64,000 nt of DNA from contig OZ024766.1 in assembly GCA_964016885.1 (NCBI GenBank), forward strand, positions 7,502,001 through 7,566,000, read 5' to 3'. Made by a program: the position numbers and the translations under genes. Each line of letters starts with the position of its first letter. Position 1 is the stretch's first letter. The stretch comes from Eledone cirrhosa (Eukaryota). Under the pieces are notes generated by a model. That model was given only the letters and a program-made list of their open reading frames with translations, was not told the DNA's origin and made no database searches. Below, piece after piece: positions 48,061-62,268 of the stretch.

Positions 48061-48951
48061 TAAGGTAATGAATTCTTTTACAATGGAATCAGCTCGAATG
48101 AGGAAAAATATCCCCTGAGCAGTGTATAAATTAATATATATGTGATGAAACACAGATACCAACACATCTGTATATATATTGCAAAAGAAAAATTTAGCCA
48201 GATTGAAGTATACTAATTATTATACTACAGTTTGTCCATATCGATTTAAAATAATAAATCAACGGAGACGAACTGTATTGGCAAAGGGCCGTGATGTTTA
48301 GACACATTTAAATTTCAAAATCAAACCTGTTCCGTAGATAAGTTTAGACTTTAAGATCCAAATATGTTTCGAGTTAAATAAGTGTAGGAATATCATGTCC
48401 CGCTCTCCTCAGTAAACATCCAGAGACAAATTGATATGCTTCACTTCTAAATAATTTAAAAGACTGCGTGGCGCACATGGCTTTACAGTATCTAACTAGT
48501 CTCATAACCGTACTGCTAGAAATAACAGTCGTGTATATGAGGCGGCTTTGCAGCTCAAACTAGGAGCAGATTAAAATTAATAAGGTAATGAATTCTTTTA
48601 CAATGGAATCAGCTCGAATGAGGAAAAATATCCCCTGAGCAGTGTATAAATTAATATGTATGTGATGAAACACAGATACCAACACATCTGTATATATATT
48701 GCAAAAGAAAAATTTAGCCAGATTGAAGTATACTAATTATTATACTACAGTTTGTCCATATCGGTTTAAAATAATAAATCAACGGAAACGAACTGTATTG
48801 CCAAGTTCGTCTCCATTGATTTATTATTTTAAATCGATATGGACAAACTGTAGTATAATAATTAGTATACTTCAATCTGGCTAAATTTTTCTTTTGCAGT
48901 ATATATACAGATGTGTTGGTATCTGTGTTTCATCACATACATATTAATTTA
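48061..48951 (-). mobile_element. Penelope-like/retrozyme-like element: 220-bp direct repeats (520-bp period) plus an inverted third copy, with a hammerhead in the spacer
   Basis: 48061-48280 is nearly identical to 48581-48800. 48804-48951 is the reverse complement of 48647-48794 (9-nt loop). A hammerhead lies at 48337-48420. Confidence 0.6.
48337..48420 (-). ncRNA. Type I hammerhead ribozyme
   Basis: Minus strand reads GAUGUUUA-CUGAGGA-GAG...CUC-GAAA-C[AUAUUUGGAUCUUAAA]G-UC-UAAAC(UU)AUC. It has a full core, GUC cleavage triplet, stem I GUUUA/UAAAC and stem II GAG/CUC. Confidence 0.7.
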
Positions 48952-48972
48952 GATATATATATATATATTAAT

Positions 48973-49881
48973 GGAGGCACATGGCTTAGTGGTTAGAGCA
49001 TTGGGCTTGTAATTGAAAGGTTGTGAGTTCAATTCTCAGACCGGGTGATGTGTTGTTTCCTTGAGCAAGACACTGTATTTCACATTGCTCCAGTTTACTC
49101 AGCTGTAGAAATGAGATGATAGGGACTGGGGTCCAGATCATTCCACTGCAAAGTGGTCGTGGAGGTGCCATGGCAAAAAAACACCCAACACACACTGTAA
49201 AGTGGTCGTGGAGGTGCCATGGCAAAAAAACACCCAACACACACTGTAAAGTGGTCGTGGAGGTGCCATGGCAAAAAAACACCCAACACACACTGTAAAG
49301 TGGTCGTGGAGGTGCCATGGCAAAAAAACACCCAACACACACTGTAAAGTGGTCGTGGAGGTGCCATGGCAAAAAAACACCCAACACACACTGTAAAGTG
49401 GTCGTGGAGGTGCCATGGCAAAAAAACACCCAACACACACTGTAAAGTGGTCGTGGAGGTGCCATGGCAAAAAAACACCCAACACACACTGTAAAGTGGT
49501 CGTGGAGGTGCCATGGCAAAAAAACACCCAACACACACTGTAAAGTGGTCGTGGAGGTGCCATGGCAAAAAAACACCCAACACACACTGTAAAGTGGTCG
49601 TGGAGGTGCCACGGCAAAAAAAACCCCAGCCCTCACTGTAAAGTGGTCGTGGAGGTGCCATGGCAAAAAAACACCCAACACACACTGTAAAGTGGTCGTG
49701 GAGGTGCCACGGCAAAAAAACACCCAGCCCACACTGTGACGTGGAGGTGCCACGGCAAAAAAGCACCCAGTCCACACTGTAAATGAGGTTGGTGTTAGGA
49801 AGGGCATCCAGCTGTAGAAATCAAGCCAGCATCAGTTCACGTCCCACCCTTGCAAGCAGGGAAAAAGCGGACGTAAAATGA
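48973..49881 (+). mobile_element. SINE family A, full length, with ~13 internal 49-bp tandem units
   Basis: Pol III A box TGGCTTAGTGG (48982) and B box GAGTTCAATTC (49025), CORE-like CCTTGAGCAAGACACT...CCAGTTTACTCAGCTGTAGAAATG, internal array, AGGAAGGGCATCCAGC, and tail GGACGTAAAATGA. Confidence 0.88.
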
Positions 49882-49984
49882 AAAAATATATATAAATCGT
49901 CAGTTGATTGACTTTCGTCAAATCGGACCGAGGAAACAATGTTTCCGTTGGTCTTTCCAATTGCTAATACTATCTATCAGTCGC

Positions 49985-50108
49985 AACTCCACGTAGAAAG
50001 AGCAACGTGAAATAAAGTGTCTTGCTCAAGGACATAACACATCGCCTGATCCGGGAATCGAACTCACAACCTCATCATTGCAAATCCAATTCTTTTACCA
50101 CATGCCTT
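49985..50108 (-). mobile_element. Diverged SINE-A-related head fragment
   Basis: GTGAAATAAAGTGTCTTGCTCAAGGA...GGAATCGAACTCACAACC is the reverse complement of the B box and CORE-like segment. Confidence 0.7.
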
Positions 50109-50210
50109 CATATATATATATATATATATATATATATATATATATTTAAAAGTTAAACGAGGTTCAATGAATACATCAAAGACTATGTCAGGGTATGTCA
50201 TGCATCATCT

Positions 50211-50277
50211 TATTTTATCTGATGAGGACGTACTGTTGAACTTAACTCAGTACCTCTGAAATATGTATAATAAAATA
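50211..50277 (+). ncRNA. Minimal type I hammerhead ribozyme (PLE type)
   Basis: UAUUUUAU-CUGAUGA-GGAcGUACUG...CAGUACcUCU-GAAA-UAUGUA-UA-AUAAAAUA. 8-bp stem I, intact core, near-palindromic hexamer in stem III, AUA triplet. Confidence 0.85.
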
Positions 50278-50439
50278 TACTTGATCACAAGAATATCTAT
50301 TTTGTTAATATTTTGAATTAATATATATATATATAATCATCATCATCTTCGTTTAACGTCCATTTTCCACGCTAGCATGGGTTATATATATATATATATA
50401 TATATATATATATATATATATATATATATATATATATAG

Positions 50440-50875
50440 TAGTACCACTCCACATAGATTCTTCAATTTAAGAATAACCTGTATATCGAATTTCATACTA
50501 TAAACCTCAATTGAATATATATCTGACCAGAAATGCTTTTTTTGAAAATCAGTCATATGGAACTATTGTCATCTTGCCCGACGGTTTGAATTTTACAACA
50601 CCACCTGCTTCTTTGAGGTCAAATACCAACCCTACTAGCATCTACAAACTGACCAATGAGAATTAAAACTATTCCTGCTGACAACATTAAATTATTCCTA
50701 ACAAACTCATATGTCCCAAGGCTCTGATACCATCAACACCATAAACACAGAACTGGCATATCTAAGAACTGACTAACTGCCTGATGAGGTCATAGCCATT
50801 CAATGGCTATCATCGAAATATATATAGCAGTAAATAAAGGATTATGAGTTCATGCAATTGACTTATGTTTCGTCA
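50440..50875 (+). mobile_element. Degenerate Penelope-like 3' end (pLTR) between (TA)n tracts
   Basis: ENQSYGTIVILPDGLN (50544-50591) resembles the E...PxGLN end of PLE GIY-YIG ORFs, and a hammerhead follows about 190 bp downstream. Confidence 0.5.
50776..50831 (+). ncRNA. Minimal type I hammerhead ribozyme (PLE type)
   Basis: ACUGC-CUGAUGA-GGUcAUAGCCAU(uca)AUGGCUAUcAUC-GAAA-UAUAUA-UA-GCAGU. Perfect stem I, 11-bp stem II and palindromic UAUAUA. Confidence 0.88.
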
Positions 50876-50967
50876 CTATATATATATACTCTTTTACCTG
50901 TTTCAGCCATCCGGCTGAGGCCATGCTGGGGCACCGCCCCAGACTATATATATATATATATATATAT

Positions 50968-60448: not shown

Positions 60449-60744
60449 GACCCTACACAAGTATAACACCATCACCACCATCACCACCACTACCCCCCGC
60501 CCCCCTCAGCAGGTCAAAATCTATGTTGTAACTTTGTTGTGATGGCCAAAAAATCTGTTACTGAGAGGAAATAACAGCATTTACTGACTTTTTCAGGATG
60601 TTACAACAACAACAACAACAACAAGAACAACTATTACTACTATAGTAACAACAGTTATATATATATATATATATATATATATATATATATATGATCATCA
60701 TCATCTTCGTTTAACGTCCATTTTCCATGCAAGCATGGGTTATG

Positions 60745-61086
60745 TGTATATATATATATATATATACATAAATAAATGTCTTTATATATAGATATATATA
60801 TATAGAGAGACATTTATATATGTATGTCTATATATATATATATATATATGTATATATATATATATATATATACATAAATAAATGTCTTTATATATAGATA
60901 TATATATATATAGAGAGACATTTATATATGTATATATATATATATATGTATGTATATATATATATATATATATATATATATATATATATATATGTATATA
61001 TGTATATATATATATATATATATATATATGTATATGTATATATATATATATGTATATATATATATATATATATATATATATATATA
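60745..61086. repeat. (TA)n-based microsatellite
   Basis: Direct reading. Confidence 0.9.
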
Positions 61087-61166
61087 AATCCCTGATGTCT
61101 CCCAAAAGTAACGGTTGCATTTTGAAAGGGTATGTCAATATTTATTTATAAAACTGGTATATATTG

Positions 61167-61231
61167 TATTTTGCCTGATGAAGGCATACCATAATTTAAC
61201 ATGGTATCCTTGAAATATGTATAATGAAATA
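61167..61231 (+). ncRNA. Minimal type I hammerhead ribozyme with weakened stem I
   Basis: UAUUUUGC-CUGAUGA-AGGcAUACCAU...AUGGUAUcCUU-GAAA-UAUGUA-UA-AUGAAAUA. The flanks (AGGGTATGTCA upstream, TTTGTTAATAT downstream) are shared with the 50211 copy. Confidence 0.75.
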
Positions 61232-61462
61232 GATATGGTGTTATAAATATAGTTTCCATTTGTTAATATCGTATATATATATATATATATATAGACATAT
61301 ATATCTATATATATATTTATATATATATATATGAGTTTCAGAAGATCCCATTAAGTGTGAAAGCAGCGATTATTTGCTTAAACTTTAATATATATATATA
61401 TATATATATATACATATATATATATATATATATAGACATTTATATATGTATGTATATATATA

Positions 61463-61604
61463 TCATCATCATCGTTTAACGTCTATCTTCCACGCTTGCA
61501 TGGGTTTGGACGGGAATTTGTCCCACTTGAGGCAAGATAGGTTGTCTTGCTCGTATAGGACTGTCTGGCAGGTTTTCTACGGCTGGATGCCCTTCCTAAC
61601 ACCA
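61463..61604 (-). mobile_element. 3' part of a SINE-A-related element
   Basis: (CAT)n-CGTTTAACGTC...GCATGGGTT...TTTCTACGGCTGGATGCCCTTCCTAACACCAA. Shorter tail-only copies occur at about 50336-50383 and 60695-60741. Confidence 0.65.
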
Positions 61605-61730
61605 ATATATAGATATATATAGACATACATATATAAATGTCTATATATATATATATATATACATACAAAGACATTTATTTATGTATATATATAGCTATAT
61701 ATAAAGACGTTTATTTATCATCATCATCAA

Positions 61731-62113
61731 TTTACGTCTGCTTTTCCCTGCTTGCAAGGGTGGGATAGGAACTGATTCTGGATTGATTTCTACAGCTGGA
61801 TGCCCTTCCTAACACCAACCTCATTTTACAGTGAGTGCTGGGTGCTTTTTTGCCATGGCACCTCCACGTCCACTTTGCAGTGGAATGATGTGGACCCCAG
61901 TCCCTATCATCTCATTTCTACAGCTGAGTAAACTGGAGCAATGTGAAATAAAGTCTCTTGCTCAAGGAAACAACACATCACCCGGTCTGAGAATTGAACT
62001 CACAACCCTTCCGATTGCAGGGCCAACAACACACACATCACCCAGTCTGAGAATTGAACTCACAACCTTTCGATTGCAGGGCCAATGCTCTAACCACTAA
62101 GCCATGTGCCTCC
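61731..62113 (-). mobile_element. SINE family A, full length, one internal unit, duplicated B-box segment
   Basis: Same architecture. ACACATCACCC.GTCTGAGAATTGAACTCACAACC occurs twice, 60 bp apart. Confidence 0.85.
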
Positions 62114-62225
62114 ATGTATGTATATATATATATATATATATATATATATATATATATAAAAAAAAAACAAGATGGCGTAGGACAGAACAAAGGAGAGGCA
62201 CAAAAACAAAGAAAAGAATTCCCCA

Positions 62226-62268
62226 GTCACTGAAGAGGTCACAGAATGTGTGACGAAAGAACTTTGAC
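62226..62268 (+). ncRNA. Degenerate minimal hammerhead
   Basis: GUCA-CUGAAGA-g-GUCAC...GUGAC-GAAA-GAAC-UU-UGAC. The core and stems I and II are present, but stem III is too short. Confidence 0.45.

Follow-up and report, generated by a model that had tools for sequence, protein, structure and literature searches.

Hammerhead ribozyme motifs beside an HMGCS exon of Eledone cirrhosa as probable ends of truncated Penelope-like elements

What kind of element left several hammerhead-like sequences in the DNA beside a gene for HMG-CoA synthase (HMGCS) in Eledone cirrhosa, and how many of these sequences are hammerheads at all? We addressed this question in a window of 64,000 nt (assembly GCA_964016885.1, contig OZ024766.1, positions 7,502,001 to 7,566,000; positions below count from the first letter of the window). 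A preliminary description, made from the sequence alone, had listed seven motifs, here labelled H1 to H7, as a cluster of Penelope- or retrozyme-type ribozymes upstream of HMGCS, and all seven stretches are present where it placed them (Table 1). We find that the hammerhead assignment is real for four motifs (H2–H5), probable for two (H1 and H7) and wrong for H6. With a probability that we put at about 0.82, the motifs are hammerheads near the 3′ ends of endonuclease-bearing (EN+) Penelope-like retroelements (PLEs), left where members of several families (at most six) inserted independently, and 5′-truncated, into (TA)n tracts.

Structure of the motifs

The hammerhead core (CUGANGA, GAAA, U16.1 and H17) is complete in six of the seven motifs, H1–H5 and H7. 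H2–H5 share a common plan, in which a stem I of 5–8 bp is followed by CUGAUGA, stem II, GAAA, an 8-nt self-complementary stem III (A15.1 to U16.1) and A17. Their stem II opens with 3 bp, which a C·C or C·U mismatch separates from 6–12 further pairs (9–15 pairs altogether), and this C·pyrimidine mismatch at the fourth position is shared by all four. The predicted cleavage site is AUA throughout; the G10.1-C11.1 pair is found in H3 only, with G·U or A-U in its place in H2, H4 and H5. The self-complementary stem III hexamers reported earlier for these four motifs are as described, UAUGUA holding G·U wobbles. H5 is probably damaged by a mismatch in stem I.

The remaining motifs had been judged less accurately. 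H1, which had been counted with H2–H5 as having a full core and pairable stems, does have the core, but its stems II and III are weak and the 16-nt loop of its stem III is non-palindromic; it is probably a decayed or aberrant hammerhead. H7 and H6 had both been called degenerate. The core of H7 is intact, and H7 is a hammerhead of another subtype than H2–H5. H6 escapes every descriptor, also when one core mismatch is allowed, and can be aligned to a family of fold-back repeats; we rejected it as a hammerhead. The fold of three helices, open at stem I, is thus found with covariation in H2–H5 and with weaker helices in H1 and H7.

Table 1. Positions of the motifs, of the units that carry them and of neighbouring features in the window.
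Feature	Position	Strand	Description
H1	48337..48420	-	Full core, GUC site (C17 at 48347); stem I 5 bp; stem II only 3 bp; stem III 2 bp
H2, type I hammerhead	50211..50277	+	Stem I 8 bp; stem II 3 bp + C·C + 6 bp; 8-nt palindromic stem III; predicted cut after A17 = 50269
H3, type I hammerhead	50776..50831	+	Stem I 5 bp; stem II 3 bp + C·C + 8 bp, G10.1-C11.1; palindromic stem III; predicted cut after 50826
H4, type I hammerhead	56961..57031	-	Stem I 8 bp; stem II 3 bp + C·U + 12 bp; GC-rich palindromic stem III; predicted cut after 56969
H5, type I hammerhead	61167..61231	+	C·A mismatch at first stem I pair; predicted cut after 61223
H6, rejected as hammerhead	56755..56814	-	C3 changed to U, without GAAA, without U16.1; diverged relative of fold-back repeats at 50971, 52078, 52288, 55079
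H7, compact motif like a minimal hammerhead	62226..62268	+	CUGAAGA, GAAA, CUU site; stem I 4 bp; stem II 6 bp with G10.1-C11.1; extra base; 6-nt imperfect palindrome
PLE-type complex insertion with H1	48058..48950	-	Body 48570-48058 (~510 nt); direct and inverted copies
TA-to-TA unit with H2	50146..50321	+	177 nt
3′ end of high-copy repeat family with H3	50441..50876	+	3′ end 50875-50876 joined to (TA)n
TA-to-TA unit with H4	56926..57087	-	162 nt
TA-to-TA unit with H5	61087..61271	+	185 nt
Possible remnant of PLE reading-frame end	50478..50591	+	Putative; ends in PxGLN motif
First coding exon, HMG-CoA synthase	47407..48032	-	Pfam PF01154, E 4e-70; ATG at 47961; 5′ edge = splice-acceptor-like site 48032
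Candidate non-coding first exon/promoter of HMGCS	54896-55000	-	Donor-like site 54896, E-box 54985, ETS-like word 54999

Shuffled sequence of matched dinucleotide composition does not yield similar numbers of motifs. We searched a repeat-stripped region of 12,428 nt and 1500 dinucleotide-preserving shuffles of it, made in 500-nt blocks, using descriptors composed after the motifs were known. The three stricter descriptors recover 3, 4 and 5 motifs in the real sequence and none in any of the 1500 shuffles, and the loosest recovers 6, against a single match in 16 of the 1500 shuffles and never two. The CUGANGA word alone occurs 10 times where 5.4 occurrences are expected, a modest excess. Among H2–H5, 10 of the 18 pairs are changed on both sides and 95.8% of the cells pair, in an alignment of four sequences whose structure was derived from the same four; this level of pairing is reached in 0 of 500 shuffles, and no slid control exceeds 4 pairs.

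The Rfam search that had been proposed as a check gave no hammerhead family above threshold: none stands among the best 150 of 227 rows for the window or in scans of H2, H3, H5 and H7, and the matches obtained are only miRNA matches driven by microsatellites. Evidently, the library models do not cover this form of hammerhead. With a covariance model built from H2–H5, the window yields no additional copy, the next best score being 12.8 bits (E 2), and H7 is missed too. The strict pattern of the subtype occurs at no locus in metagenome contigs and at none in viral contigs; a looser pattern occurs at 91 metagenome and 4 viral loci, and 0 of these 95 form both stems.

Origin of the motif-bearing units

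Relations between the units were examined by masked self-BLAST within the window. The flanks of H2–H5 do not align with one another outside the ribozyme, and we therefore assign these motifs to different families; the identity between H2 and H5 (75%) is confined to the motif. The units are framed alike: (TA)n tracts border H2–H5 on both sides, and stem I is separated from the 3′ (TA)n by 43, 45, 41 and 40 nt in H2, H3, H4 and H5, respectively. The motifs all stand singly, each between flanks of its own, and no hammerhead lies within any tandem array of the window.

For the unit with H3 we obtained a copy profile, comparing the 436 nt given in Table 1 with 4 of 23 public DNA runs at 80% likeness; it is the one unit of the six bearing motifs that was profiled. 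Organism A has 1210 contigs that match this stretch in run X1 and 3001 matching reads out of 12,467,656 in run X21 (restriction-site-associated DNA sequencing, RAD-seq); in organisms B and C a few contigs match (8 and 5). Roughly half (51%) of the matching X21 sequence continues into unlike DNA. The summed depth in X1, which is not a copy number, climbs stepwise from ~30,000 at 50516-50575 to 490,000 at 50816-50830, or ~15-fold toward the 3′ end. As a rough estimate, the family may comprise thousands of copies or more. Other copies end in (TA)n at 50875 (at least 2 contigs), and their 5′ junctions, which follow (TA)n, lie at 50709, with 18 contigs and 305 reads of mixed flanks, at 50757, with 113 reads, and at 50515, with 86. 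The element reads ATAT at all three junctions, which suggests that the 5′ end is joined by microhomology with the target. The family extends upstream of 50490. Truncation at the 5′ end with a common 3′ end is thus seen for the H3 family, and for the other units the distance of 40–45 nt points to it. The catalytic core of H3 has no variant among 40 of the 45 variant rows; C11.1 is U in ~13% of the X1 depth, as expected of CpG decay.

Two further signals in these runs were rejected. The starts and ends of X21 reads are at or beside AATT sites and reflect the RAD library rather than cleavage, and a 171-nt skip bounded by GT and AG in 7 DNA reads, which could have passed for an intron, is flanked by repeats of 8 nt, for which reason we regard it as a deletion through microhomology.

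Partial tandem and inverted copies are found at the H1 insertion and in several neighbouring fold-back units with one arm longer, and at none of the H2–H5 units themselves. In the H1 insertion a direct copy (98%) of the body's last 227 nt (48804-48578) stands on the 5′ side of the body, and an inverted arm runs from 48804 without the last ~70 nt; the arm's end near 48950 was read from the sequence. PLEs are described as showing 5′ truncation, tandem and inverted copies, tails of 30–40 bp and a (TA)n bias (Craig et al. 2021, PMC8557442), and insertion structures like the direct-plus-inverted H1 unit are reported (PMC8557442, PMC3846280).

We infer PLE membership from anatomy and not from an open reading frame (ORF). 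The architecture of the motifs, their fixed distance to the 3′ (TA)n, the truncation profile of the H3 family and the tandem and inverted structures fit what is published on PLEs, and the Penelope-type assignment of the preliminary description is borne out to that extent. Its other statements on the elements fare less well. Abundance and insertion into (TA)n hold for the H3 family only. Rather than short elements, the units are more likely truncated ends of longer ones, as the upstream continuation of the H3 family indicates. That they are probably unannotated is doubtful: PLEs are annotated in the genome of Octopus vulgaris, where they make up 6.83% in 190 families (PMC13282606), and a 2507-bp PLE of O. 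bimaculoides, Hydra-1_Obim, has been published with a hammerhead close to the 3′ end (PMC8557442). Since the O. vulgaris share implies ~1 fragment per few kb if fragments of ~400 bp are assumed, the density of hammerheads in the window needs no special cause.

Metazoan type I hammerheads have a stem III of 1-2 bp with a palindromic loop of 2-4 nt, single elements probably being related to truncated PLEs, and PLE hammerheads, solo copies included, reach ~9,000 per genome (Cervera & De la Pena 2014, PMC4209133). The window motifs resemble those described there in being type I, with a long stem II, a short palindromic stem III that requires a dimer, and mostly solo copies that belong to many families. 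The extra base ahead of G10.1-C11.1, a typical trait of minimal hammerheads in PLEs, is present in H7 as well. H2–H5 differ from them in lacking the extra base, in their longer stem I (5–8 bp), 8-nt palindrome and AUA site, in the C·pyrimidine at the fourth stem II position and in having G10.1-C11.1 in H3 only, and they are known here without a linked ORF (PMC4209133). Hydra-clade PLEs target (TA)n, most of their stems III are near-palindromic and 8–10 nt long, and in three consensus sequences stem I lies ~30-40 nt from the 3′ end, counted by eye (PMC8557442). H2–H5 share with them the target, the position near the 3′ end and the extended near-palindromic stem III, but the Hydra stems II tabulated there are without a 1x1 mismatch at position 4. 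Naiad PLEs are likewise biased to (TA)n, form tandem and inverted structures and occur in octopus genomes; they are described as lacking canonical hammerheads and as being remnants in cephalopods (PMC8557442), whereas H2–H5 have all three stems.

It is most likely that the kind of element is already described, namely ordinary PLE tails. The apparent new detail is the C·pyrimidine mismatch in stem II. This mismatch was not found in the published tables compared, a narrow check, and Lunse et al. 2017 may already describe the subtype. Our literature search found no survey of cephalopod hammerheads. The locus adds one more animal genome strewn with PLE hammerheads, thousands per genome being already reported in fish, frogs, coral and axolotl.

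Several observations weigh against the assignment to PLEs. No reverse transcriptase (RT) or GIY-YIG domain is found in the window (0 relevant Pfam matches in 42 frames read through stops), although truncated ends would not be expected to carry one. When the frame preceding H3 was compared with proteins, it gave no match, or matches to repeat proteins only, of which 6 of 6 look spurious. None of six short motifs from the window matches a hammerhead in the supplement of Craig et al. (PMC8557442), so we can assign them to no named family. A high copy number is seen for the one profiled unit, that of H3, out of six that bear motifs (the others being those of H1, H2, H4, H5 and H7). The depth step at 50709 could mark a short subfamily of fixed length rather than recurrent truncation. 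Finally, the folding energies given below place a non-active cofold under the active one for all four homodimers of H2–H5, and the H5 homodimer is unfavourable.

A trace of coding sequence may exist upstream of H3, where a frame open for 62 codons holds a PxGLN motif, such as ends PLE GIY-YIG domains; it resembles other PLE endonuclease ends (Neptune-type) and not the Hydra C-terminus. Of the 10 variant rows up to PxGLN, 7 fall on third codon positions and 6 are synonymous, against 1 of 9 after it (P ~0.02-0.06). This is only a hint of a PLE coding remnant. A word similar to PxGLN stands in Naiad_Obim (PMC8557442).

If the units are truncated PLE ends, a full-length element elsewhere would supply the RT and the GIY-YIG endonuclease. 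The endonuclease would nick a (TA)n tract, cDNA synthesis would begin at the element's 3′ end and halt early, and the 5′ end would join the target via ATAT microhomology. The hammerhead would lie within ~110 nt of the 3′ end, so that nearly any copy longer than ~120 nt would retain it. The stem III of a single copy would be too weak for activity; in a tandem transcript of the parent, with the element between two pseudo-LTRs (pLTRs), two copies would swap strands through the palindrome, and the resulting double hammerhead would cut after AUA and trim the precursor. The solo copies in the window would have no partner in cis and are most likely inert passengers.

Monomers and dimers were compared by nearest-neighbour energies only. 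The active monomer folds of H2–H5 lie 4-11 kcal/mol above the best fold. The active homodimer and two monomers reach -21.6 and -20.2 kcal/mol for H2, -32.6 and -31.4 for H3, and -32.7 and -21.2 for H4, the homodimer thus lying 1-12 kcal/mol lower; H5 is presumably impaired because of its C·A mismatch. In vitro, such motifs show no activity as monomers and low activity as dimers (PMC4209133), and 8 of 9 Xenopus dimers tested failed to cleave (bioRxiv 10.64898/2026.07.22.740005). A by-product is the H2–H5 set itself, natural hammerheads with covariation and a presumed obligate-dimer habit, among which H4 stands out; they share a conserved mismatch in stem II and could be used to probe the role of PLE hammerheads and the reason for their low rates in vitro.

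Other readings of the locus

The units, of 160-190 nt (~510 nt for H1), might instead be non-autonomous derivatives of PLE ends, monomeric retrozymes or SINE-like RNAs (short interspersed elements), mobilised by PLE proteins in trans and possibly via circles. The H2, H4 and H5 units are indeed alike in size, the form beginning at 50709 is a dominant 167-nt version of the H3 family at which depth rises ~2.5-fold, the H1 unit exceeds unit length, and retrozyme monomers derived from pLTRs have been described (bioRxiv 10.64898/2026.07.22.740005). Non-LTR retrozymes of animals, too, are short (150-450 bp), AT-rich and non-coding units with a type I hammerhead (PMC7229834; Li, Clavereau & Pollet 2026 preprint). 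Their definition, however, requires circular RNAs and an array of tandem repeats in which every unit has its hammerhead (PMC7229834), whereas the window motifs are solo units with different flanks. The 5′ junctions of the H3 family are several, and these, together with its upstream extension, are as truncation predicts; two hammerheads in tandem units, which retrozymes need for the release of a monomer, do not occur here. The retrozyme and circular-RNA part of the preliminary description is thus unsupported, and we consider non-autonomous mobility of the units unlikely.

A more far-reaching proposal goes beyond ordinary truncated PLE ends. H2–H5 would form a distinct subtype (3 bp, C·pyrimidine and a long stem II extension, 8-nt palindrome, AUA site) with tens of thousands of copies or more, its mismatch serving as a tertiary contact; solo copies of different families would act as heterodimers in read-through transcripts or in trans; and inverted PLE copies would arise from snap-back of the cDNA in stem II. 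Cross-family heterodimers are conceivable because the stems I of H2, H4 and H5 are cross-compatible (7-8 of 8 pairs), that of H3 not being so, and snap-back is conceivable because five fold-back units turn just before a half motif of GAAA, hairpin and GUC. If true, this would place the genome among the most ribozyme-dense; taken jointly, these proposals appear improbable.

It is very unlikely that some motifs have been co-opted as regulators of HMGCS that would cleave either its pre-mRNA or a transcript antisense to it. The acceptor-like site at 48032 and the candidate donor at 54896, which is near E-box and ETS-like words, would make H1–H3 intronic, and the H3 copy in the window has no private change in 50753-50875 against 9 upstream, among 40 of the 45 variant rows. 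The sense strand of such an intron would, however, hold H1 only, the weakest motif, and the motifs sit in unrelated repeat units, one of them high-copy. An H2 and H3 heterodimer in cis, which would release a 557-nt RNA, was rejected, its incompatible stems I giving -7.5 kcal/mol. Least probable of all, and already refuted for H2–H5, are chance matches in AT-rich, palindrome-rich DNA, to which the modest enrichment of CUGANGA, the readiness of (TA)n-rich DNA to yield palindromic hexamers, the failure of H6 and the dependence of H1 and H7 on looser descriptors lend some colour, against the empty shuffles for descriptors of the H2–H5 and H7 types, the covariation and the lack of both stems in public loci sharing the primary pattern.

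The HMGCS exon and neighbouring repeats

The HMGCS exon is a neighbour of the hammerhead elements and not part of them; its closest homologue in our search is 78% identical. The region had been described as lying upstream of the gene, which is uncertain: the first coding exon starts at an acceptor-like site, and part of the region may be a 5′-UTR (untranslated region) intron. Judged from the two splice-like sites, H1–H3 may be located in it. To speak of a cluster is weak as well, since most of positions 1-47,400 is satellite array, with units of 48, 31 and 25 bp and TG/TA tracts, and the motifs occupy the non-satellite quarter of the window. This quarter, which adjoins the HMGCS exon, is a mosaic of short repeats with (TA)n between them.

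The 31-bp satellite is G-rich and numbers ~1000 copies (30 kb) at 9948-40790, downstream of the HMGCS exons at 47407-48032 and ~41130-41260; from its position it possibly lies inside an HMGCS intron. The 25-bp satellite (42714-47416) sits between HMGCS exons. The unit of 48-49 bp (1045-8025; 49144-49783), which has grown to a 7-kb satellite, is also present within a dispersed SINE-like repeat. Heads resembling tRNA at 48982-49039 (28.1 bits) and 62043-62106 (25.1 bits), against an Rfam threshold of 29, belong to an abundant SINE-like family, whose repeats look like those of octopus. Two decayed frames on the minus strand have no Pfam match; 54100-54750 looks like the C-terminal part of a non-LTR element with a restriction-like endonuclease, and 55437-55946 like that of an RTE-type long interspersed element (LINE).

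Four copies of a TA-flanked fold-back element are found at 50971-51161, 52078-52271, 52288-52486 and 55079-55260, one arm being ~80 nt longer. All four turn just before GAAA, a hairpin and GUC, an arrangement that resembles a hammerhead's 3′ half, CUGANGA being absent. The occurrence of this half in the family counts once, against 0.18 expected by chance per region, and serves as a lead only; an origin of the element by cDNA snap-back in stem II is possible. TA-flanked inverted-repeat elements also occur at 51520-51580 and 56104-56400, the former having a minus-strand CUGAUGA without the 3′ half. At 56543-56643, a TA-flanked element forms a perfect hairpin; beside the fold centre, its arms contain GAAA and GUC together with a near-palindromic stem III of the Hydra kind.

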